Below, piece after piece: positions 11,810 through 35,580 of a stretch of DNA of 64,000 nt (the stretch's first letter is position 1; every line of letters starts with the position of its first letter). The DNA is taken from the NCBI RefSeq assembly GCF_056746865.1, contig NZ_CM163382.1. One strand, written 5' to 3'. Below the pieces are notes generated by a model, which ran no database searches, was not told where the DNA came from, and was given only the letters and a program-made list of their open reading frames with translations. The translations under genes were made by a program, and so were the position numbers.

Positions 11810-12520
11810 TTTCAAATGCGCCTATAAGGCTCTCTTACCAGCCGCGCCCTAACAGGCGCACACGATCTGACATTTGCATCCAACTTCGTTACTTACGGCC
11901 CGTAAACGGGCTGCCCGGATAGGGAATCGATAACTGCTCTCCCATTTTATCCTCTTCAAGCTGGTGCTTTATGTAATCCTGTATCTTCGCCGTGTTCTTA
12001 CCCACTGTATCGACGTAGTACCCTCTGCACCAGAACTCCCTGTTCCTGTATTTGAATTTCAAATCACCAAACTGCTCGTAAAGCATCAGACTGCTTTTCC
12101 CTTTCAGATATCCCATAAACCCGGATACGCTCATTTTAGGCGGGATCTCCACAAGCATATGGATATGATCTGCACAGCATTCAGCTTCCAGAATCCGTAC
12201 GCTTTTCCACTCACACAGCTTTCTCAAAATACTGCCTATTGCTCTACGCTTCTCTCTGTAGAACACCTGTCTTCGGTATTTTGGCGCAAAAACTATGTGA
12301 TATTTACAGTTCCATCGGGTGTGCGCTAAGCTCTTTTCGTTCCCCATTGGGACCCCCTTTTGATTTCTTGTTTGACACTTGCAGTTGCCAGACCGCAAGG
12401 TGTTTTAACAAATCAAAAGGGGTTTTAATAACTGGCTCAAAGCTGAAAGCTTTCCGGAACCCCCAGCCTAGCTGGGGGTTTTCTGTGCACAAAAAAAGGC
12501 GACTCATCAGTCGCCTTAAA
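11810..12520 (-). mobile_element. IS200-family insertion sequence (about 0.71 kb, ends approximate)
   Basis: Contains an IS200-type tnpA plus two hairpins at the rph-proximal end (aaggcgactgatgagtcgcc+T7, and aacccccagcctagctgggggtt). The rph-pyrE gap is 777 bp against about 68 bp recalled for K-12. Confidence 0.7.
11889..12347 (-). CDS. tnpA: IS200/IS605-family transposase TnpA (HUH Y1 type)
   Basis: MGNEKSLAHTRWNCKYHIVFAPKYRR...HIHMLVEIPPKMSVS matches IS200 TnpA; 152 aa from the internal Met. Confidence 0.9.
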   Translation of the reverse strand: MGNEKSLAHTRWNCKYHIVFAPKYRRQVFYREKRRAIGSILRKLCEWKSVRILEAECCADHIHMLVEIPPKMSVSGFMGYLKGKSSLMLYEQFGDLKFKYRNREFWCRGYYVDTVGKNTAKIQDYIKHQLEEDKMGEQLSIPYPGSPFTGRK

Positions 12521-13365: not shown

Positions 13366-14229
13366 ATGATCCGCAGTATGACCGCCTACGCCCGGCGTGA
13401 AATCAAGGGTGAATGGGGGAGCGCAACCTGGGAAATGCGCTCGGTAAACCAGCGTTATCTGGAAACTTACTTTCGTCTGCCGGAGCAGTTCCGTAGCCTT
13501 GAACCTGTCGTTCGCGAGCGTATTCGTTCTCGCCTGACGCGCGGTAAAGTGGAATGTACCCTGCGCTATGAACCAGATGTTAGCGCACAAGGTGAGCTGA
13601 TCCTCAACGAAAAACTGGCTAAACAGCTGGTAACTGCCGCGAACTGGGTAAAAATGCAGAGTGACGAAGGGGAAATCAACCCGGTTGATATTCTCCGCTG
13701 GCCGGGGGTAATGGCAGCCCAGGAGCAGGATCTCGACGCGATTACCGCTGAAATTCTCGCGGCGCTGGATGGTACGCTGGACGACTTTATCGTCGCACGC
13801 GAAACCGAAGGTCAGGCGCTGAAAGCATTGATCGAGCAGCGTCTGGAAGGCGTCACCGCCGAAGTGGTCAAAGTCCGCGCCCATATGCCGGAAATCCTGC
13901 AATGGCAGCGTGAGCGTCTGGTCGCGAAGCTGGAAGATGCTCAGGTGCAACTGGAAAACAACCGTCTGGAGCAGGAGTTGGTTCTGCTGGCACAACGAAT
14001 TGACGTTGCCGAAGAACTGGATCGCCTCGAAGCGCATGTCAAAGAGACCTACAACATTCTGAAGAAAAAAGAAGCGGTTGGTCGTCGTCTGGACTTTATG
14101 ATGCAGGAGTTCAACCGCGAGTCGAACACTCTTGCGTCGAAATCTATCAATGCCGAAGTGACGAATTCTGCCATCGAGCTGAAAGTGTTGATTGAGCAGA
14201 TGCGCGAGCAGATCCAGAATATCGAATAA
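13366..14229 (+). CDS. yicC: YicC-family stress-induced protein
   Basis: 287-aa ORF MIRSMTAYARREIKGEWGSATWEMRSVNQRYLE. Confidence 0.95.
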   Translation: MIRSMTAYARREIKGEWGSATWEMRSVNQRYLETYFRLPEQFRSLEPVVRERIRSRLTRGKVECTLRYEPDVSAQGELILNEKLAKQLVTAANWVKMQSDEGEINPVDILRWPGVMAAQEQDLDAITAEILAALDGTLDDFIVARETEGQALKALIEQRLEGVTAEVVKVRAHMPEILQWQRERLVAKLEDAQVQLENNRLEQELVLLAQRIDVAEELDRLEAHVKETYNILKKKEAVGRRLDFMMQEFNRESNTLASKSINAEVTNSAIELKVLIEQMREQIQNIE

Positions 14230-14265
14230 GCTATCAGTAAAAATCACCAAGCAGCAAAAAACCAC

Positions 14266-14294
14266 AAAGCCCGCGAAATGTCGGGCTTTTTTGT
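14266..14294 (+). terminator. rho-independent terminator after yicC
   Basis: agcccgcgaaatgtcgggc stem followed by tttttt. Confidence 0.6.
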
Positions 14295-14336
14295 TATCAT
14301 GAGCTATCATAACGACGCAACAAAGCGCACAATATG

Positions 14337-14360
14337 CGTGTACATAGAGGTGTACATAAT
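14337..14360. repeat. left boundary direct repeat of the island (putative attL): cgtgtacatagaggtgtacataat
   Basis: 22 of 24 identical to 35327-35350; flanked by further TGTACA palindromes at 14365-14390. Confidence 0.6.
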
Positions 14361-14417
14361 GACTTTCATGTACATTGCTTTATGTACACACCCATATTCG
14401 ATATTCAGGTATTCGCA

Positions 14418-15677
14418 ATGCCAAAACTCACAGATATGCAGATCCGCGCATGGATAAAGGCGGGAGACAGATTTGATGGCAAGGCAGACGGCAACGGCCT
14501 TTATATTTGCTACCCCAAAAACTACACAGTCCCGTTCTGGCGATTCCGCTATAAGCTCGCAGGAAAGCAGCGGGCTATGGTTATAGGCTCTTACTCCGAA
14601 CTGTCACTATCAAAAGCCAGAGAAACAGCAAAAGAGCTGTCAGCCAGAGTTGCTCTTGGCTATGACGTAGCAGCAGAGAAACAGGAACGAAAAGCTGAAG
14701 CACTGGCAAAAATGGAGGCTGAGAAAAACGCCATGCGTGTTTCAGATCTGGCCTCCGAATACTTCGAGCGCCAGATACTTCCGAGATGGAAACATCCCGA
14801 TATCCTTCGCCGGAGAATTGATAAGGATATTAACCCCTGCATTGGGCATATGAAGGTGGAGGACGTTAAGCCACGCCACATTGACGACATGTTGAAAGGT
14901 ATCGTTGACCGAGGAGCACCAACGATAGCAACAGATGTATTACGCTGGACACGCCGTATCTTTGACTATGGGATAAAACGCCATGCTCTGGAGATAAACC
15001 CTTGTTCAGCGTTTGAAGTATCTGATGCTGGTGGTAAAGAGGTTTCCCGCGACCGTTGGCTAACTCGCGATGAGCTTATCAGGCTATTCGAGGCTATGCG
15101 CACCGCAAAAGGATTCAGCCGCCAAAACGAACTGACATTTAAGCTATTGCTGGCACTATGCGTTCGTAAGATGGAGTTATGCGCCGCACGATGGGAAGAG
15201 TTTGATTTAGATAGTGCTGTATGGCATTTGCCGGAAGAACGCAGCAAAAACGGGGACCCTATTGATATACCTCTACCTTCTCCAGCCGTTGAATGGTTGA
15301 GAGAGCTACACACCTTTTCATGTAATAGCGCATGGGTGCTTCCAGCCAGGAAGATGCAAAACAGAATGATCCCACATATTCAGGAAAGCACTTTACCCGT
15401 AGCACTGGCTAAGGTTCGCGCCGAAATGCCGGATGTGCCTAATTTCACGATTCACGACTTCCGACGCACCGCACGTACTCATTTAGCAGCGTTGGGTGTT
15501 GATCCTGTTGTGGCGGAACGATGCCTCAATCATCGCATTAAGGGCGTAGAGGGGATTTATAACCGCCATCAGTATTTTAATGAGCGTAAAGCAGCACTGG
15601 CACAGTGGGCTGATCTGCTGGTGGCACTGGAAAGCGGAAAAGACTACAACGTAACGCCTCTCAGAAGGGCGAACTAA
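14418..15677 (+). CDS. int: tyrosine recombinase, P4/CP4-57 integrase family
   Basis: MPKLTDMQIRAWIKAGDRFDGKADGNGLYICYPKN... with C-terminal HDFRRTARTHL...NHR...IYNRHQY catalytic region; 419 aa. Confidence 0.9.
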   Translation: MPKLTDMQIRAWIKAGDRFDGKADGNGLYICYPKNYTVPFWRFRYKLAGKQRAMVIGSYSELSLSKARETAKELSARVALGYDVAAEKQERKAEALAKMEAEKNAMRVSDLASEYFERQILPRWKHPDILRRRIDKDINPCIGHMKVEDVKPRHIDDMLKGIVDRGAPTIATDVLRWTRRIFDYGIKRHALEINPCSAFEVSDAGGKEVSRDRWLTRDELIRLFEAMRTAKGFSRQNELTFKLLLALCVRKMELCAARWEEFDLDSAVWHLPEERSKNGDPIDIPLPSPAVEWLRELHTFSCNSAWVLPARKMQNRMIPHIQESTLPVALAKVRAEMPDVPNFTIHDFRRTARTHLAALGVDPVVAERCLNHRIKGVEGIYNRHQYFNERKAALAQWADLLVALESGKDYNVTPLRRAN

Positions 15678-15902
15678 CTGAATAGATTGAGCCTAGCTCG
15701 ACGGGGCGAAAAGCGGGAAGCCTTACCGCCTGGCTCAATCACAAAATAAGGCGCAGCGTAAAAGGTGACGCAATGAACGACTCTCATGAAACAACTGCGG
15801 TGCATAGAAATTAGACTGGCCCCCTGAATCTCCAGACAACCAATATCACTTAAATAAGTGATAGTCTTAATACTAGTTTTTAGACTAGTCATTGGAGAGC
15901 AG

Positions 15903-16268
15903 ATGATTGATGTCTTAGGACCGGAGAAACGCAGACGGCGTACTACACAGGAAAAGATCGCTATTGTTCAGCAGAGTTTTGAACCGGGAATGACGGTCTC
16001 CCTTGTTGCCCGGCAACACGGTGTGGCAGCCAGCCAGTTATTTCTCTGGCGCAAGCAATACCAGGAGGGAAGTCTTACTGCTGTGGCCGCAGGAGAGCAG
16101 GTCGTTCCTGCCTCTGAACTTGCTGCTGCCATGAAGCAGATTAAAGAACTCCAGCGCCTGCTCGGCAAAAAAACGATGGAAAATGAACTCCTTAAAGAAG
16201 CCGTTGAATACGGGCGTGCAAAAAAGTGGATAGCGCACGCGCCCTTATTGCCCGGGGATGGGGAGTAA
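15903..16268 (+). CDS. insC: IS2 transposase OrfA (InsC)
   Basis: [53 protein letters not shown] matches IS2 InsC. Confidence 0.9.
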
Positions 16269-17131
16269 GCTTAGTCAGCCGTTGTCTCCGGGTGTCGCGT
16301 GCGCAGTTGCACGTCATTCTCAGACGAACCGATGACTGGAAAGATGGTCGCCGCAGCCGTCACTCAGATGATACGGATGTGCTTCTCCGTATACACCATG
16401 TTATCGGAGAGCTGCCCACGTATGGTTATCGTCGGGTATGGGCGCTGCTTCGCAGACAGGCCGAACTTGATGGTATGCCTGCGATCAATGCCAAACGTGT
16501 TTACCGGATCATGCGCCAGAATGCGCTGTTGCTTGAGCGAAAAACCGCTGTACCGCCATCGAAACGGGCACATACTGGCAAAGTGGCCGTGAAAGAAAGC
16601 AATCAACGATGGTGCTCTGACGGGTTCGAGTTCCGCTGTGATAACGGAGAAAAACTGCGAGTCACGTTCGCGCTGGACTGCTGTGACCGTGAGGCACTGC
16701 ACTGGGCAGTCACTACGGGCGGCTTCGACAGTGAAACAGTACAGGACGTAATGCTGGGAGCGGTGGAACGCCGCTTCGGCAACGAGCTTCCGGCGTCTCC
16801 AGTAGAGTGGCTGACGGATAATGGTTCATGCTACCGGGCTAATGAAACACGGCAGTTTGCCCGGATGTTGGGGCTTGAACCGAAGAACACGGCGGTGCGG
16901 AGTCCGGAGAGTAACGGCATAGCAGAGAGCTTCGTGAAAACGATAAAGCGTGACTACATCAGTATCATGCCTAAACCAGACGGGTTAACGGCAGCAAAGA
17001 ACCTTGCAGAGGCGTTCGAGCATTATAACGAATGGCATCCGCATAGTGCACTGGGTTATCGCTCGCCACGGGAATATCTACGGCAGCGGGCCAGTAATGG
17101 GTTAAGTGATAACAGGTGTCTGGAAATATAG
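16226..17131 (+). CDS. insD: IS2 transposase OrfB (InsD), DDE integrase domain
   Basis: 301-aa ORF overlapping insC in another frame, as in IS3-family frameshifted transposases. Confidence 0.9.
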
Positions 17132-18090
17132 GGGCAAATCCAGAAATTTATGGCAGGAATCAGGTATTCCACCTTTGGACTACTGCACGATAGAGCGAGC
17201 ATCAAAATTATTAAATTGTGAAATTGATGATATATGGCATTGGAAAGATAGACTACATATAGACTTTTATGTCTATGCTGACTTTCTTGATTTCATTGAA
17301 GCTGATGCCACCATCCACTTCAAAAAAGATGCTGATTTTATAACTGATTTATTACTTATGTACCCAGAAGAAGTAAGGTTTACATTTCCTTTTCTTATTA
17401 CCAGCGCAAGCAACGAAGTTTATATCCCAGCATCTGAAAGCGGTGCTTATGAGCTATTTTATGCACATAAACCACTGACAGTTGAAGACAGAGACAATAA
17501 AAATGTTTTTGAACAAATTGGCAAAAACTCTTTTATTGTAAGAAAATCAATTGCATGTGGATTGTTGCGTGTACGCGGTAGTACAAAACGACATTATCAT
17601 TCACAAGAATGTGGAGAGCCATATGTGCGACTTGAAGCAACATTTGATTGTGATCTATATAAATTCAAAATGCAAAGTTCCCAGATTCACCTGAGTAGCC
17701 TGTCAGATAAAAACATTTATATAACAAAGGCTGATTTAGAATACCTTCACGACGCAAAGGTTAATGGAAGTTTTGACGCAGCTAAGAGCAAAAAACGATA
17801 CGAAATGGCGGTAGAACAGGAACTAATACCTGAAATAAAAAATAGCAACCATAATGCCGAGAGACATGCTGAAAACAGGGAAAAACTTTTCAAATCAGCA
17901 ATATATCTTTTGTCAAAGTATCCTGATGAATGCCGTGGCAAAAAGAAAGAAATAAGCCCTGAGAAGTGGCGGGATTGCATAGTGGCTCATAAAGACGAAA
18001 TTCCACCGTTAGCAATCACAAATGAAGATGTGATTTTGAGACACTTACGTGCTGCCGCCAACGGTAAGGGGTAGAGTAGCTAACTATTCA

Positions 18091-18117
18091 GGCACAGTAT
18101 CATTACTGTGCCTTTTT
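18091..18117 (+). terminator. rho-independent terminator after the orphan gene
   Basis: ggcacagta-tcat-tactgtgcc stem followed by ttttt. Confidence 0.5.
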
Positions 18118-18188
18118 ATTGTTCATATATGTACAGATACTTCCTCCCGTAACGAAGCAACAACTATCGCTAAGAGGTTACGGGAAGC

Positions 18189-18392
18189 ATGAACACCGAC
18201 ACTATTCCTACAAAAGGCTATATCAGACGCTTCCGCCTGGCTGAATTGCTGGGCGTTAGTGTATCCACCATCGACCGTAAAGTAAGAAACGGTTCACTAC
18301 CACGTCCGGTAAAGCTGGGAGAAAAAATAACTGCGTTTGATGCGGTTGAGATTCACAACTGGCTGGCAGAACGCCGCGGGAAGGTGGTCTGA
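18189..18392 (+). CDS. alpA: AlpA/Vis-family excisionase-like transcriptional regulator
   Basis: 67 aa; RFRLAELLGVSVSTIDRKVRNGSLPRPVKLGEK...WL pattern typical of AlpA. Confidence 0.85.
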   Translation: MNTDTIPTKGYIRRFRLAELLGVSVSTIDRKVRNGSLPRPVKLGEKITAFDAVEIHNWLAERRGKVV

Positions 18393-18823
18393 TGGAAAAG
18401 AAAAACCGCCCATTACAGGCGGCTAATTCAGATATTCGCGTATCTGATGTTACGCCCCTTACAAAATCCCTTCAAGCACCAAAGCGCACACCGAAAAAGC
18501 ATCGTGCCAGAGTCTATATGCTGCGTACTGGTATAGAGGGATGGACAGAAAATGACATTCTTCGCTACTGCCGTCTGTCTTCTGGTCGTAACTATGCAAC
18601 AGAGTTAGAACGCCAGCTTGGAATCACTCTGGAGCGTATCGACGAAAAGAATCCTGATGGTATCGGAACACACCTTCGCTACCGTTTCTCCTGCCGTGGT
18701 GATGTTCTGAAAGTGATCACTCATGTTAACCATCTTGCGAGCATAAATGATCACAACGGACTTTCTCAGCAGGAAATTGCCGACATTCTGAAACTCTACC
18801 CGGACGCGTTTAACGCCGCCTAA
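18392..18823 (+). CDS. hypothetical protein (143 aa)
   Basis: ORF start overlaps the alpA stop (ATGA); no recognisable motif. Confidence 0.6.
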   Translation: MEKKNRPLQAANSDIRVSDVTPLTKSLQAPKRTPKKHRARVYMLRTGIEGWTENDILRYCRLSSGRNYATELERQLGITLERIDEKNPDGIGTHLRYRFSCRGDVLKVITHVNHLASINDHNGLSQQEIADILKLYPDAFNAA

Positions 18824-18835
18824 CGGAGACTGAAA

Positions 18836-19669
18836 ATGAACATCGAAAAAAGCAGATTAATTTCTGAGGCCGCCCCTCATCTGAACGCCTCTCTGGGCAC
18901 AATTAACGGTAATGAATTTGCCGCAATTGTCCCGGTTATTCCTGGTCATATCGGTGGGCGTGAAACCAATATTGTTAGCGCAAAAGCGTTACACAAAGCG
19001 TTGGGCGTGGGAAAAGACTTCTCTACATGGATCACTGATCGCATCTCTGAATATGACTTCACCATTGGGCACGATTACTCAGTCCATAAAACAATTTCCC
19101 CAAATTTGGGGAAAAGCCCGAATGGCGCGGCTTACAGCAAGATTAAGCAGTCTGGCAGACCCGGCAAAGACTATCTGTTAAGTGTCGGAATGGCGAAAGA
19201 ACTGGCAATGATCGAACGCAATGATCAGGGTCGCGCTATCCGTCGTTATTTCATCCAGTGCGAGGAAGAATTACAGCGTAGCGTGCCTGAAATCGCCGCC
19301 CGCTATCGTCGCCAGCTAAAAGCCCGTATCAGTGCCGCAAACAACTTTAAGCCAATGTGCGATGCGCTGAATATGGCCCGTGCCGAGCAGGGGAAAACGA
19401 CGCAGCAACACCACTACACAAACGAGAGCAATATGATTTCTCGTATCGTTCTTGGTGGGCTAACTGCTAAGCAGTGGGCGCGGATAAATGGCTATTCTGG
19501 CGAACCTCGCGACCATATGAACGCAGAACAACTTGAGCACCTCTCATATCTCGAAAGCACCAATATCACGTTAATTGATATGGGCATGGAATATGAGCAG
19601 CGCAAAGGAGAACTCACCCGCCTGTCGCAACGCTGGCTCGCCAAGCGTCTGGAGGCGGTCCATGTTTAA
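18836..19669 (+). CDS. phage antirepressor-like protein (KilA-C/Ant-type C-terminal region)
   Basis: 277 aa; C-terminal segment ...GRAIRRYFIQCEEELQ resembles antirepressor proteins; assignment from memory. Confidence 0.55.
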   Translation: MNIEKSRLISEAAPHLNASLGTINGNEFAAIVPVIPGHIGGRETNIVSAKALHKALGVGKDFSTWITDRISEYDFTIGHDYSVHKTISPNLGKSPNGAAYSKIKQSGRPGKDYLLSVGMAKELAMIERNDQGRAIRRYFIQCEEELQRSVPEIAARYRRQLKARISAANNFKPMCDALNMARAEQGKTTQQHHYTNESNMISRIVLGGLTAKQWARINGYSGEPRDHMNAEQLEHLSYLESTNITLIDMGMEYEQRKGELTRLSQRWLAKRLEAVHV

Positions 19670-19837
19670 GCCGACAGGAACACCACAACCTCAAAAACGC
19701 TACAAAGATGCCCACGGAGCACTCGTTACTGTCGAAAGCGTGTCTCACAACCGAGTGACGTTTTATCGCGACGGGTATCAATCGCCATGCGTACAACCGC
19801 TGGCGCGCTTCATGAAGGAGTTCGCGGAGGTTAACAA

Positions 19838-20869
19838 ATGCTAACCGTCCAGAAGAAGATATTTTCACTGACTGCTATGTTGCAAAAATCCAGCAATATG
19901 ACAGCAAAGTCTGGCATTAATACAGCAGATACAAGCAAAGCTTATCATTTTATGGTGGTAGGAGCGGATGCCTTAACTATGTCAGAAATTACGGTCGATG
20001 GTGTTAGCGTTGAGAAGGTCAGCGGCTGCGCCAGAGAATTTCTGGTCGTAGATGGCTTTCTCTTCTCGCGTAGTGACTCCACAAAAACCTTCGTCCATGC
20101 GCGTGACGTTAACGAAATGAGCGCGATGTACTGTGCATCTGGTGCTTCCAATAGCGAGTTTTCGGAGTCCATAAAAAAGAGCTTGCCGTTATGCGGCAAC
20201 ACGGTTTATGGTTATAAGGCACCTCATAAAACGGGTGCCGGGATTGGCCTCCCGCTGGAGTTATCGGCGATACATGACGCGCCAGCGTCTTTTTTTGTAT
20301 CGGCGCACACGCACACCTTATCAATGGTGGGCTGTATGGGGCTACCTTCGGGTAGGCTGGTTTCCGATAACGCCAGTAAGGCCAACTCCGTACAGTCCAC
20401 CGCCAGCAAGATTGGTCTCTTCTGCGGTGGTTATAACAAGCCAACGTTATCGGAGGATGCCACATGCTGGCTACTACCCCTACCCAAAAACCGCAATTTA
20501 TCTGGATTATCGCCGCAGTTCGCCGCGATTGCCCGACAATTACCGCCAAAATTCATCATATTGCTGCCGAGTCTGAACGTGATGCTCGCCGTTCTCTGGT
20601 GCGCGATCACGTCTGCTTTTTTGCTGGTCGTATCCGCATGGAGGTGGCTCATGATTAAAACCTACGATGTGCATATGGATCCCCTCGAACGCACAAGCCA
20701 GATCATCACACTGACAGAAGTGATTAACGACATTCTGGTGAGCAACTCTCCCTCACGAGACGAAAGACTGAAGGCGTTACTCGCGATATTGGATCTCGCC
20801 GTTCGTGACGTTCATTTCCTGCTGGAAGGTGGCGAAATGCCAGTAAAAACGGGGGCAACCAATGAATAA
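19838..20869 (+). CDS. hypothetical ORF (343 aa as read; may instead be two or three small genes)
   Basis: Long open frame, but an alternative-frame small ORF 20464-20658 has a GGAGGA SD and an in-frame internal start MIKTYD at ~20654 has a GGAGG SD; gene structure unresolved. Confidence 0.3.
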
Positions 20870-21056
20870 CTCAATTAATACCCCTCGCCTTACGTCCGCA
20901 CTTCAATTAATCGAGCAAGCAGCGGCTGTCCTGGTTGCTGTCAGTCTTTCGGCTGAAGAAATGGACGCTACTGATGTCGTGGATGCGATTAAAGCGTGCT
21001 CATCTTTGGTTAACGATGCCCGTGCAGAGCTGGTAATTCTTGGGGGTGAAAAATGA
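20862..21056 (+). CDS. hypothetical small protein (64 aa)
   Basis: Start overlaps the upstream stop; part of a co-directional overlapping ORF chain. Confidence 0.45.
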   Translation: MNNSINTPRLTSALQLIEQAAAVLVAVSLSAEEMDATDVVDAIKACSSLVNDARAELVILGGEK

Positions 21057-21316
21057 ATATCAACTTAATTTATCGTCATCCGTGTGAGCTGGAAATTGAA
21101 TCATTGCTGAGCCGTGAAGAGCCATATCCAGACACATTCACTCTTGCAGATCGCACGACTGAACGGCTTACCAGAGCGCGCACAGGTCTGGTTCATGTGA
21201 TGAATGAGATTCTTCCATCGGTGGGAGGGGAACAGGCGACAGTAATCACTAGCTGGCTACAAAAAGTTACCTCTCTGATAGATATCAGTTTAATCGATGC
21301 GGAGAGTGCGAAATGA
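21053..21316 (+). CDS. hypothetical small protein (87 aa)
   Basis: ATGA overlap with the upstream ORF. Confidence 0.5.
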   Translation: MNINLIYRHPCELEIESLLSREEPYPDTFTLADRTTERLTRARTGLVHVMNEILPSVGGEQATVITSWLQKVTSLIDISLIDAESAK

Positions 21317-21534
21317 CCAACATCCAGCTCATTGAAGCGCAATGTCGCATCGAACAGGTTCAGACTGTTTTAGGGTTCTGGCTTGAAGGGGCCAGCCCCA
21401 GCAACAGAGACAAGTTAATGATTGGCGCGGTTATGTCACTGCTCAATGGCGTACCAGAAGCTATTCAGGAAGCAGACGAATTGTTGGGCAAATATGAGTT
21501 ACAGAATCATTCAGGCGAGGCGAAACATGAATAA
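21313..21534 (+). CDS. hypothetical small protein (73 aa)
   Basis: ATGA overlap with the upstream ORF. Confidence 0.45.
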   Translation: MTNIQLIEAQCRIEQVQTVLGFWLEGASPSNRDKLMIGAVMSLLNGVPEAIQEADELLGKYELQNHSGEAKHE

Positions 21535-22129
21535 TTTCTTAACGTTCCATGCAGAAGCAACGCCTGACGGCGTAAACATCATGCACCGCAGCAACGATGG
21601 CATGACAGAACGCGTTGAGGCCGTCTCATATATTGATGCCGTAAATCGTCTGGATGACGGGGATTATGACGATAAACCAGATGAAGGTATGTCAATACAT
21701 CTCGCTATTGCCGATGGCGGCAACCAGGGATATTTCGATTACACATCACAGCATAACGTCATTATGTGGAGATGGCTGATCGCAACAGTATTCATGCTGG
21801 AAATGAGAGAGGAAAACGGCACTGTCAGCATCATTGATGATACTGGCAATCCTTCCGAAGTGGCTGTTTATTCCAACGGCATCGTCGCCATGCCGCTGTA
21901 TCCAGTAGCAGAGCGCCTCGCTATGGCAAACAACATTGAGGGCGCGATGATAGAACGTTTTGGCATCGAGTCTGGCACAGAACGCGCCATCATTTTCTAC
22001 AGAGCCATGATGGATGTGGAACAAGGAGCACTGACTCCATTTGGTCGTGAAACGCTTGCTGAACTTCACAACAGCTTTATAGCTGAACTGAATGAAAACG
22101 GCATGCCAGCGGAACCAGTGACGCACTAA
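21527..22129 (+). CDS. hypothetical protein (~201 aa, start at MNNFLTFHAE)
   Basis: Internal start overlapping the upstream stop; acidic protein. Confidence 0.55.
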   Translation: MNNFLTFHAEATPDGVNIMHRSNDGMTERVEAVSYIDAVNRLDDGDYDDKPDEGMSIHLAIADGGNQGYFDYTSQHNVIMWRWLIATVFMLEMREENGTVSIIDDTGNPSEVAVYSNGIVAMPLYPVAERLAMANNIEGAMIERFGIESGTERAIIFYRAMMDVEQGALTPFGRETLAELHNSFIAELNENGMPAEPVTH

Positions 22130-22139
22130 GGATGGAGCC

Positions 22140-22481
22140 ATGATTACTAAAAATTTCCGACTGAATGCGCTGGCAAATAAGTATGCGTCGGCACTGTATA
22201 ACCACATTACCTCCACCAGCGGCGGGGACTATTTCATGATTGATGCGGACGGAGAGGCCGTCCGTGTGGAAATCGTCAATGGAGTAAAAGGCGTTCGCAG
22301 CCTGATCGATAGTTACGCACTGGCAGCCATGAAAGTGTTCTACCCGCAGTGGGAAACCGTGGGGATCGAGCTTCTTGATCGTTGCGTCACTAAGGACGGA
22401 TTGACTGACGCCGGGCGTGAGATATGGCAAAGCATGGTTAATGACATGGGCGCAACTGTAGCGGGAGGTTCTCATGCGTGA
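22140..22481 (+). CDS. hypothetical protein (113 aa)
   Basis: Co-directional, closely spaced. Confidence 0.55.
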   Translation: MITKNFRLNALANKYASALYNHITSTSGGDYFMIDADGEAVRVEIVNGVKGVRSLIDSYALAAMKVFYPQWETVGIELLDRCVTKDGLTDAGREIWQSMVNDMGATVAGGSHA

Positions 22482-22845
22482 AAATGCAGAAATGGCGCTT
22501 AGCTCCGCAATCGGAGAGCAGGTGGCAAAGATTGCTGGTGCTGTGTGGATTCATAACCTTCATTCTACTGGTGAAGAGAAAATGGCAATTCAGACGCCAG
22601 AGGGACGCACCATTACTACATCTCTGAAGCCGTCAGATGTTTGTGATCTGATTTGCGCATTCATGTACCCAGCAATGAGGACTGTCCACGGCGATAAGTG
22701 GAAACTTGCGACAACCGCTGAATTTGATATGTGGCTAAACAATGATGGCATGCTGACTGATTACGGAATAACCAAGTGGCAGATGCTGGTTAGCCATATC
22801 GCAAACGCTATAGACCACGTGGGGTACGGTGATGCGAAACATTGA
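22474..22845 (+). CDS. hypothetical protein (123 aa)
   Basis: Overlaps neighbours at both ends. Confidence 0.55.
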   Translation: MRENAEMALSSAIGEQVAKIAGAVWIHNLHSTGEEKMAIQTPEGRTITTSLKPSDVCDLICAFMYPAMRTVHGDKWKLATTAEFDMWLNNDGMLTDYGITKWQMLVSHIANAIDHVGYGDAKH

Positions 22846-34969: not shown

Positions 34970-35326
34970 TGCTCTATCTGTTTTGGCAAATTACCCCTCA
35001 CTTTGAAGGGATCGGAGCTATAAAAATGGTGTTATCCGGCTTCCTGCATTGCAGGTTTTCGAAAAAATCAATGGGTTAGGTCATCGTGCAAATTTGCACT
35101 CTGCCAGCCAACGCAATTTCTCGTTGGCGAAAATATCAGGTATTTACTGATTCTGCCGCCTCACAAGGATGCGAGAACCTTATAAAACCTAATATCGCAG
35201 AGCTTAATTGTGTACAGCAATTTCACGAGCAATACGCGCGCGCAGGACAACAAGCCTGAACATGGTTACACACCTCGATCGTGAGGGATGTAGGCAATGG
35301 CTTCTGACCAAAGCACCCGAAAAAAC

Positions 35327-35350
35327 CGTGTACATAAGGGTGTACATAAT
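35327..35350. repeat. right boundary direct repeat of the island (putative attR): cgtgtacataagggtgtacataat
   Basis: 22 of 24 identical to 14337-14360. Confidence 0.6.
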
Positions 35351-35580
35351 CAAAAATCGCATTAGGAAGAAACCAGATACAATGCGGCATTGAAGCCAAT
35401 ACTCTACAAACAGATCCAAACTCGTAACGCCAATTCTTCCTTTTCAGCCTTCACAAATGCCGCCCACTCAAACAGAGCGGCATTTTTCCTCCCCGCAACA
35501 TTCAATTCTGTTTTGCGTGCCTGCTCCAGATTTTGCGATGTTTTTTTGCCCAGCGCAGTGAGAACGTGAGATACTTACAA

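Follow-up and report, generated by a model that had tools for sequence, protein, structure and literature searches.

The window, the 64-kb stretch of DNA analysed here, carries a phage satellite island of the PICI type at positions 14230–35418, inserted at the stop codon of yicC between yicC and dinD; all features of the window given below lie on the plus strand. Comparison with the empty site of K-12 places the junctions at 14229/14230 and 35418/35419, and without an IS2 copy described below, the island measures 19,853 bp. Its genes are unidirectional, its size falls in the class of about 10–20 kb, and it has no full set of phage morphogenesis or lysis genes. The gene order fits that of a Gram-negative PICI, with int at the left end, followed by alpA, Bro and antirepressor genes, a primase gene, and a late zone; the zone model is that of PMC10111431. 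Across 14230–28390, the island matches that of ECONIH1 at 99.1% identity. The int gene (14418–15677), taken from the list of open reading frames and its NCBIfam integrase domain, encodes a P4-type tyrosine integrase of 419 aa; an identical gene is annotated as ‘tyrosine-type recombinase/integrase’ in RefSeq, and its equivalents at related loci match the Pfam profiles Arm-DNA-bind_3, Phage_int_M, and Phage_integrase. The alpA gene (18189–18392), the first gene of the inducible operon, encodes an AlpA-family regulator/excisionase, and its equivalents at related loci match Phage_AlpA / HTH_17 of Pfam. The motif GTGTACA is repeated at both ends of the island; a similar doubled motif in other PICIs has been suggested as the target of the Int arm domains, of AlpA, or of ‘some unknown DNA binding protein’ (PMC10111431). 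A second island at tRNA-Sec was ruled out because the ORF after tRNA-Sec encodes a SetB/SetC-type sugar efflux transporter.

Between int and alpA lies a gene, here called X, that is split by IS2. The 5′ fragment (15773–15811, MNDSHETTAVHRN) holds the native start and 13 codons, and the 3′ fragment (17148–18074) comprises codons 14–321 and the stop codon. Translation would natively start from the ATG at 15773, with the Shine-Dalgarno sequence AAGGTG (15762–15767) located 5 nt upstream. Removal of IS2 and one copy of GAAAT in silico yields an ORF of 966 nt, encoding a protein of 321 aa that is identical to WP_001000002.1. X has a GC content of 37.3%, whereas int reaches 49.2% and the 64-kb window as a whole 48.8%. 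The earlier note, made from the sequence alone, had described a gene of about 321 aa directly downstream of the integrase, with its own Shine-Dalgarno sequence and terminator hairpin, a GC content below that of its surroundings, and a frame restored upon excision of IS2, and all of these features hold up. Uninterrupted X is present in 75 of 5426 complete E. coli genomes, where it is annotated as a hypothetical protein (WP_001000002.1 / WP_001000003.1); E. coli ECONIH1 and A30 each have an island with intact X. All X alleles have a GC content of 35–40% while the adjoining int and alpA genes are at about 50%; because the low GC content is constant across the alleles, it is no sign of recent acquisition and was dropped as evidence of a recent foreign origin. 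The AT-richness and the allelic hypervariability of X fit an arms-race gene equally well.

The inserted element (15812–17142, 1331 bp) carries tnpA and tnpB and has the features of IS2 of the IS3 family, namely a length of about 1.33 kb, terminal inverted repeats (which are imperfect), two ORFs, and a 5-bp target duplication. Judged against the curated NCBIfam cut-offs, the two ORFs score 276 bits as IS2 TnpA (cut-off 229) and 708 bits as IS2 TnpB (cut-off 597). As the earlier note had it, IS2 follows codon 13 of X and is flanked by a perfect duplication of GAAAT at 15807–15811 and 17143–17147. The exact IS2–X junction was found in 0 of 5426 complete E. coli genomes, and the insertion is therefore strain-specific; it is in itself an ordinary gene disruption. 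It had also been claimed that the right end of IS2 supplies an in-frame ATG, leading to a fusion in which 13 native residues are replaced by 13 from the element. An in-frame ORF of 322 aa does extend over 17106–18074, but it begins with a GTG inside the IS2 right end, immediately preceded by a TAA stop codon (TAA-GTG), and the exchange was miscounted: 12 IS-derived residues take the place of 11 native residues (MNDSHETTAVH), and the RN that follows survives, since the duplicated target site codes for it. Nothing resembling a promoter was detected in the right end of IS2 near the start of the fusion ORF. In this strain, IS2 separates X from its native start and promoter, so that X is probably silent or weakly produced as the GTG-initiated fusion.

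X has the same orientation as int, from which it is separated by 95 nt here and by 11–18 nt in other alleles. In the spacer, cmscan detected the int-alpA RNA motif (Rfam RF02996, 15686–15752) at 60.6 bits, above the gathering score of 35.8. At the related loci L004, L010, and L026, int is likewise followed by this motif, with X coming next, and at L023 the motif stands between int and DUF6387. No terminator was found between int and X. An intrinsic terminator follows X at 18090–18123, with a 10-bp stem and then a T-run (18090–18113), and the stem is kept across loci with compensatory changes. We infer that int and X are co-transcribed and that the terminator closes the unit. The −10 region of alpA and a hairpin, CCCGTAAC-N23-GTTACGGG (18146–18184), which abuts the ribosome-binding site of alpA, both sit downstream of the terminator. 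We considered this repeat as an operator for X. It occurs, however, also in islands that have DUF6387 or a 216-aa gene instead of X, and its arms in L025, L026, and L028 differ in sequence yet stay complementary. Because the repeat persists without X and co-varies as an RNA hairpin, it is no operator of X, and the hairpin belongs to alpA.

X had been regarded as an orphan gene, but its relatives form at least 599 clusters at 50% identity. Synteny was inspected at about 20 loci, which represent about 17 of the clusters at 50% identity and several genera. At essentially every one of them (~20/20), X directly follows a P4-type integrase and, where alpA is detectable, directly precedes it; the intact homologues beside integrases that the earlier note had called for are therefore at hand, and they reside in mobile elements. 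The loci occupy several chromosomal contexts (yicC, der, tRNA-adjacent sites, and others), and no family member was seen outside the int-alpA slot in these ~20 loci.

Related integrases are present in 543 E. coli genomes. In the sampled E. coli islands, the slot always holds exactly one gene, which is an X allele, DUF6387, or the unrelated 216-aa gene, and the span from int to alpA is 1.74–2.03 kb in about 31 sampled E. coli records. Like iolg of Vibrio, one of the alternative occupants overlaps int, in this case by 4 nt. Neither DUF6387 nor the 216-aa gene has an HMM match to X. The position had been described as one for variable cargo, and the alternation of X alleles, DUF6387, and the 216-aa gene agrees with this description; X itself, however, is not free-floating but always linked to int. 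No known or multi-gene defence system was found in the slot in the E. coli sample. Turnover among unrelated genes, as seen in this slot, is typical also of accessory or defence hotspots. The CP4-57 element of K-12 has the arrangement intA-yfjH-alpA. YfjH and DUF6387 resemble X in slot position, in size (the occupants range from 216 to 318 aa), and in being uncharacterised, but they are not homologous to X; for YfjH, homology was ruled out by an hhalign probability of 0.2% and by the location of yfjH on the opposite strand. DUF6387 is also present in ICEKp258.2 / ROD21-like islands.

The statement that X matches no known family was borne out in Pfam, in NCBIfam, and in a sequence search of solved structures. 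The Pfam search returned no match for X or 97 relatives, the MerR, HTH_17, and AlpA profiles included. By fold, X is modular. Residues ~20–60 form an acidic winged helix of the MerR/Xis type, residues 61–197 form a hypervariable, β-rich, and acidic middle part, residues 224–270 form a long helix, and residues 247–321 form a conserved basic C-terminal module (ERHAxNRE...YPDECRG...ISPEKW...ILKHLR). The same charge distribution, with acidic N-terminal and middle parts and a basic C-terminus, is found family-wide. The winged-helix domain of X has a pI of 4.5, the median for the family being 5.4, and pI is a crude proxy for a DNA-binding surface. The domain shares the winged-helix fold with MerR, Xis, AlpA, and HTH_17 proteins, but the rest of X has no counterpart in them, and its acidic character is that of the protein-binding CbpM, unlike that of the DNA-binding MerR/Xis members. 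X showed neither an enzyme or effector-type fold nor conserved catalytic residues.

The modules differ sharply in conservation. In the islands at the yicC site, the integrases are 86–91% identical whereas the N-terminal and middle parts of X are merely 16–24% identical; the variable part of X thus cannot track Int or the att site. Which middle domain an island carries is also independent of its int and of its late-zone cargo. In contrast, the last 75 aa of X are 72–85% identical, with pS of 0.76–1.08, at which synonymous sites are saturated, and pN of 0.10–0.18. These values indicate ancient purifying selection on the C-terminal protein module and rule out that its conservation reflects a DNA segment shared recently. 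An embedded alpA promoter was also ruled out as the cause because the −10 region and hairpin of alpA lie downstream of the X terminator.

The closest functional reference for the island is EcCIMP1, the PICI of E. coli MP1 with the P22-like helper Kapi1 (Pick et al. 2025, PMC11773190), to which it is 97–99% identical along 12.3 kb of its 19.85 kb, from the end of alpA onward. The two elements share the antirepressor, ash with the C4 RNA, part of the primase, and the P22-type ejection-protein genes. EcCIMP1 differs in having another integrase, which targets tRNA-Thr, and another alpA allele, and it lacks both X and the int-alpA RNA. Helper-dependent excision, replication, and packaging have been demonstrated for EcCIMP1 (PMC11773190), while the X island is known from its sequence. 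The _002 gene of EcCIMP1 (~70 aa) is unrelated to X, and neither it nor the 427-bp int-alpA gap of EcCIMP1 is a remnant of X, as neither showed similarity in tblastn or blastn. Given that EcCIMP1 is functional with neither X nor a remnant of it, X is not universally required (PMC11773190).

A counterpart by position is the iolg/icg gene of the Vibrio PICMIs (Barcia-Cruz et al. 2024, PMC10803314). In PICMI115 of Vibrio chagasii 34_P_115, the gene between int and alpA was reported to be necessary for helper-induced excision, and 13 families, unrelated to one another and without assigned function, make up the PICMI slot genes (PMC10803314). The iolg deletion was complemented only by int and iolg together (PMC10803314), so its effect may be a polar one on int. 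Like iolg/icg, X stands alone between int and alpA, has no assigned function, and is co-oriented with int; iolg/icg is contiguous with int or overlaps it, a position that ~20/20 X loci share. In both cases, the gene is presumably expressed along with int, alpA being induced by phage, many unrelated families fill the slot, and a few elements are without such a gene. X differs in belonging to PICI-type elements of Enterobacterales of about 20 kb, whereas iolg/icg belongs to PICMIs of 6 kb. The likeness is one of slot position, a role in excision having been shown for PICMI115 only.

Taking these features together, we tentatively favour, at somewhat less than even confidence, the view that X is an integrase-linked adaptor, comparable to iolg of PICMI, that recognises a variable partner, probably of phage origin, and couples this to excision or induction. 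X would be a resident of the single-gene int-alpA slot in the integration zone of a Gram-negative, EcCIMP1-like satellite of the PICI type, would be produced together with the integrase in the quiescent state, and would be insulated by its terminator from the helper-inducible alpA operon. As a non-enzymatic modular adaptor, X may dock through its basic C-terminal module on an element that is constant among islands, such as Int, AlpA, island DNA, or a host factor, and the acidic winged helix and the hypervariable middle may recognise an element that differs between islands, for which a protein encoded by the helper or by a competing phage is the most plausible candidate. Recognition of this partner would then be coupled to excision or induction of the island, in analogy to iolg/icg. 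We infer the identity of the partners as well as any involvement in excision or induction.

A more specific version of the adaptor proposal makes the X family the long-sought helper sensor of a large class of Gram-negative PICI-type satellites, with the acidic region binding a specific helper protein, the C-terminal module signalling to Int or AlpA so as to license excision and induction, and the alleles setting helper specificity. We consider this version unlikely. How Gram-negative satellites sense their helpers and regulate their excision has yet to be settled (PMC6092414; PMC10803314), and a helper sensor of this kind, if true, would explain helper detection without an Stl-type repressor.

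A close rival of the adaptor is the possibility, which we find rather doubtful, that X is a stand-alone anti-phage or interference protein in the 5′ accessory region of the satellite, made constitutively from the int transcript. The corresponding division of labour, in which the hypervariable part recognises a phage component and the C-terminal module exerts the block, perhaps through contact with nucleic acid of the phage or host or with a conserved phage protein, is conceivable to the same doubtful degree. According to the literature, the immune and accessory genes of PICIs sit between int and the regulator, at the 5′ end (PMC11364771, PMC10085698). The slot swaps unrelated families and X alleles among islands with near-identical integrases, X is AT-rich in every allele and dispensable for a working satellite (EcCIMP1), and IS2 inactivates X here with the rest of the island intact. 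The absence of an effector-type fold and of catalytic residues weighs against this role, although non-enzymatic interference proteins are known from satellites, such as Tai. PICI immune systems and X share the satellite type, and some of these systems are single non-enzymatic proteins; the Tai genes, however, lie downstream of pri and occur also in phages and P4-like elements, whereas X lies only beside int, has no match in a defence library, and is confined to the int-alpA slot in the ~20 loci. Also against it, the E. coli slot never holds a known or multi-gene defence system, and superinfection immunity exists in EcCIMP1 without X. To look for defence relatives, we searched PADLOC-DB v2 with X, 10 other family members, and 3 other slot proteins. 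The sole match of X was PDC-S31 (E = 0.002, over 84 residues), which was absent from the 13 other slot proteins and was dismissed as noise; no match was reproducible among the 14 proteins. The earlier proposal of X as a candidate defence gene is therefore neither supported nor refuted: the published 5′ position of PICI immune genes and the alternation in the slot agree with it, X matches no well-characterised non-defence family, and intact homologues reside in mobile elements, but PDC-S31 was not reproduced and an effector fold is absent. If X were a defence protein, it would represent a new, widespread, single-gene anti-phage family specialised for satellites.

Quite improbable, in our judgement, is a master regulator like Stl of the SaPIs, in which X would repress the alpA operon by binding DNA, or activate it in the manner of MerR, and its variable domain would bind the helper inducer. 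Like Stl, X lies beside int, is predicted to be expressed in the quiescent state, and combines an N-terminal HTH-type fold, here of the MerR type, with a highly divergent region for partner recognition that assorts independently of int and the late-zone cargo. X is also predicted to be constitutive directly upstream of the helper-inducible alpA promoter, and the repressor and inducer of Gram-negative PICIs are stated to be unknown (PMC6092414). Unlike Stl, X runs in the same direction as its would-be target operon with a terminator in between, and the acidic character of its winged helix would be uncommon in a domain that binds DNA. The search for an operator specific to X found none, the inverted repeat before alpA being independent of X and RNA-hairpin-like. 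Furthermore, the closely related EcCIMP1 is regulated normally without X and keeps alpA silent until helper induction, and if X were an essential repressor, a stably integrated island with an IS2-disrupted allele would not be expected.

A plain architectural cofactor of recombination directionality, binding att arm DNA and contacting Int with no sensing, would account for the strict adjacency of X to int, its Xis-like fold, and the GTGTACA repeats at both island ends (a comparable PICI motif is discussed in PMC10111431), but it is highly improbable, as the N-terminal and middle parts of X diverge among the yicC islands with conserved Int and arm motifs, with which such a cofactor should co-vary, the Xis-like domain is acidic, and the gene is missing altogether from some related islands.

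The adaptor proposal concerns a gene that is usually passed over as ‘hypothetical’. One occupant of the int-alpA slot now stands as a very large integrase-linked family with no detectable enzyme fold, in which a C-terminal module of ancient conservation is joined to a recognition region that diversifies fast. The identity of the X island to EcCIMP1, which is already tractable, offers a concrete and cheap experimental handle. A genome scan for relatives listed four loci, all of Enterobacterales, and enterobacterial sequences filled the profile searches; in a Foldseek comparison, X-like folds were found also in Vibrio and Grimontia proteins.

X, the gene between int and alpA, begins with an ATG at 15773 behind AAGGTG and is broken off after 13 codons (15773–15811) by a 1331-bp element (15812–17142) with GAAAT at either flank. 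Both ORFs of this element scored above the curated NCBIfam cut-offs, as TnpA and TnpB, identifying it as IS2. The Shine-Dalgarno sequence and ATG, the insertion after codon 13 and the GAAAT duplication described in the earlier note are seen in the sequence. Removal of the element and one GAAAT copy in silico restored the expected intact frame, a 966-nt ORF of 321 aa that is found uninterrupted in 75 of 5426 complete E. coli genomes, chromosomal in every case and annotated as "hypothetical protein" (WP_001000002.1 / WP_001000003.1). The terminator hairpin 3′ of X (18090–18113, 10-bp stem) and the low GC content (37% vs 49% for int) were likewise confirmed.

The fusion ORF (17106–18074) differs from the description in the earlier note: it starts with an IS2-derived GTG, immediately preceded by TAA, rather than an ATG from the IS2 right end, and 12 IS-derived residues stand in place of 11 native ones rather than 13 for 13. 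IS2 cuts off X from its start codon and also from int-driven transcription; the IS2 right end showed nothing promoter-like. Because the native start of most relatives lies near residue 17–19 of X, the swapped residues belong to a non-conserved N-terminal extension, and the fusion protein, if produced, could be functional. The exact IS2-X junction occurs in none of the 5426 complete E. coli genomes, indicating that the insertion is recent and strain-specific; the event itself is ordinary.

X had been regarded as an orphan, but it belongs to a large family. A word-indexed search found 48 relatives, and an exhaustive profile search retrieved 599 cluster representatives at E ≤ 1e-3 (161 of them at E ≤ 1e-10), nearly all 260–380 aa long. 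The failure to place the protein in a family did hold in the sense that HMM searches of restored X against Pfam and NCBIfam yielded no named domain. None of 98 family members carries a Pfam domain, and X matched neither NCBIfam nor the sequences of solved structures. Distant members match PHROG 7144 (function unknown), and a Foldseek search of AFDB50 returned 127 clusters from Enterobacterales, Aeromonas and Vibrionaceae, every one "uncharacterized". The full-length AF2 model (pLDDT 84, pTM 0.72) comprises a small alpha/beta unit (20–60), a beta-rich middle, a long helix (224–270) and a C-terminal helical module, and contains no recognisable enzyme or toxin fold. In the middle domain no polar residue is conserved family-wide, G151 being the sole conserved residue. 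The family median pI is 5.4 for the N-terminal domain and 4.6 for the middle (both acidic) and 8.7 for the C-terminal module (basic); given the acidity of the N-terminal winged helix, its DNA binding is not to be assumed.

The genomic position of the family is strict. In every locus examined (the window, L001, L002, L004–L011, L013–L016, L018–L021, L025, L026 and L028–L030, from E. coli, Salmonella, Klebsiella, Pantoea, Kosakonia, Tatumella, Intestinirhabdus and metagenomes), X lies directly 3′ of a P4-type integrase gene (Arm-DNA-bind_3 / Phage_int_M / Phage_integrase), so intact homologues do stand beside integrases in several genera. An AlpA/HTH_17 gene follows directly, except in one locus where AlpA was undetected. 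The chromosomal contexts include yicC, der and tRNA-adjacent sites, and the late zones downstream carry P22-type ejection genes, an HK97-type capsid module, tail genes or none. The only "phage" record with an X relative is that of Klebsiella phage P12620-1 (L013; PQ569648.1, 94500–95441), again with an integrase on one side of the gene and an AlpA homologue on the other; this sparsely annotated 106-kb record may contain a satellite or host island.

We then surveyed the slot between the two genes in 5426 E. coli genomes, with a query running from the 3′ end of int through X to alpA. Related integrases were found in 543 of these, and the int-to-alpA span was 1.74–2.03 kb in all of the approximately 31 sampled records matching both genes, indicating that one gene is always present in the slot in these records. 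The occupants were X alleles, one of them 260 aa long with another C-terminus (HMM E = 3e-30); a DUF6387 protein with no relation to X; and an unrelated 216-aa gene with a 4-nt overlap with int. DUF6387 also adjoins AlpA in ICEKp258.2 / ROD21-like islands, and in CP4-57 of K-12 the position is filled by yfjH, unrelated to X and on the opposite strand. The 216-aa gene (2106–2756 of L024, a yicC-site island of E. coli E1654) overlaps the integrase stop, as does iolg in Vibrio PICMI satellites, and a 470-bp AT-rich non-coding stretch separates it from alpA. This occupancy matches the description of the PICMI slot; in PICMI115, expression of int and iolg is constitutive and that of alpA is induced by phage (PMC10803314). 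Among satellite genes contiguous with int, a class already known, X is a new and uncharacterised member.

The island itself spans 14230–35418 (19.85 kb without IS2) by comparison with the empty site of K-12, and its insertion point coincides with the yicC stop codon, upstream of dinD. It carries, in order, int, X, alpA, a gene for a 143-aa protein, an AntA/AntB antirepressor gene, DUF4222, an ash-like gene with C4/isrK RNAs inside, several small ORFs, a primase gene and P22-type gp14/gp7/gp20/gp16-like ejection-protein genes. Gram-negative PICIs have an Integration / Bro / Replication / Late layout with captured helper late genes, and the island shares both traits (PMC10111431). Sequence comparison reveals a mosaic: 14230–28390 shares 99.1% identity with the ECONIH1 island (L001), and 12.3 kb from the end of alpA onward is 97–99% identical to EcCIMP1, a PICI for which induction and transduction by the P22-like phage Kapi1 have been shown experimentally (PMC11773190). 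EcCIMP1 differs in exactly the integration module, with another integrase (target tRNA-Thr) and another alpA allele, and its 427-bp gap contains no trace of X. The isrK and C4 antisense RNA matches (20219–20407, +; 64 and 77 bits), a P4 CI-type immunity module, recur in EcCIMP1, L006, L008, L010 and L028. In the late zone (27098–32266, +), the gp16-like protein has 908 aa with an N-terminal lytic transglycosylase region; in related islands the ejection genes are replaced by an HK97 capsid/portal module in L004, by a tape-measure gene in L008 and by tail-tip genes in L011. Such variety agrees with the published proposal of helper late-gene capture by satellites.

BLAST and alignments divided X into three parts: a semi-conserved N-terminus of ~60 aa, a middle of ~137 aa alignable among close kin only, and a highly conserved last ~75 aa (ERHAxNRE...YPDECRG...ISPEKW...ILKHLR). 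Among yicC-site islands, integrase identity is 86–91% vs 16–24% for the N-terminal and middle parts of X, and the last 75 aa retain 72–85%. Synonymous sites of the C-terminal module have reached saturation (pS 0.76–1.08), and pN is 0.10–0.18, so the constraint is ancient and acts at the protein level; neither shared DNA nor an embedded cis-element explains the conservation. All X alleles have 35–40% GC (GC3 29–39%) next to int and alpA of ~50%, so that AT-richness is a trait of the family. Identical X alleles also occur in islands with different primases and late zones (L010 vs L011).

Because conservation of Int, AlpA and att persists where X diverges, its variable part cannot track them and must face something external to the integration module, most plausibly a phage component; the basic conserved C-terminal module must face something constant. 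We tentatively favor a role for X as a non-enzymatic adaptor that is linked to the module for integration and induction; its variable part would meet a phage component and its C-terminal module a constant partner. The strict int linkage, the operon layout, the single-gene slot, the lack of an effector fold and the PICMI precedent argue for this reading. A stand-alone anti-phage or interference protein is only a little less probable and would explain equally well the slot turnover between unrelated families, the AT-richness of X, its dispensability in EcCIMP1 and the published 5′ immune region. PICIs are reported to carry accessory and immune genes at their 5′ end, in the interval from int to the regulator (PMC11364771; PMC10085698), so the cargo-position premise behind the earlier proposal of orphan cargo or defence is fair in general. 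The proposal itself is only partly supported: the slot holds one gene, X has relatives, and a PADLOC search of the occupants found in the survey gave no match. That X is an Stl-like regulator seems unlikely, and that it is a plain architectural cofactor more unlikely still. What is of interest is the family itself: large, strictly integrase-linked and modular, it brings the question of how Gram-negative satellites sense helpers and control excision within reach of direct tests.

Several cis elements surround X. The Rfam int-alpA RNA motif (RF02996; 15686–15752, +; 60.6 bits vs a threshold of 35.8) lies in the int-X spacer directly 3′ of the int stop codon. It also follows int in L004, L010 and L026, and in L023, whose next gene is DUF6387, and is absent from loci with a short spacer between int and the slot gene; its recurrence before X or DUF6387 alike indicates that it belongs with int. 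The X terminator is kept across loci with compensatory changes. A hairpin at 18146–18184 (+) lies immediately next to the ribosome-binding site and start codon of alpA and has equivalents in L004, L006, L008, L010, L023–L026 and L028. We rejected it as an X operator: it also occurs in islands without X, and its arms are completely different from one alpA allele to another and remain complementary (CCCGTAAC/GTTACGGG, CCCCTATTAC/GTAATGGGG, TCCTGTCATG/CATGACAGGA, TATCCCCC/GGGGGATA), which makes it a feature of alpA. It probably acts as RNA, and the covariation points to a conserved 5′-UTR structure controlling alpA.

Four GTGTACA(T/C)A repeats upstream of int (14339–14389; conserved in L004, L006, L008 and L010) and three near the right end (35211–35346) are probably integrase arm-type sites and resemble the PICI "doubled motif" near att sites (PMC10111431). 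Past the right junction, the chromosome (35419–35427) starts with CTCGTAACG, a sequence similar to the left arm of the hairpin at alpA, C[C/T]CGTAACG (18146–18154); the likeness may be due to chance or to an integrase core-type site. Outside the island, an IS200/IS605-family transposase gene lies between pyrE and rph (11892–12347, −; NCBIfam 148 bits, cut-off 55). ECONIH1 instead carries, between slmA and pyrE, a gene of the reverse-transcriptase family (L001 14748–15707). This gene may be a retron and is absent at that position of the A30 genome.
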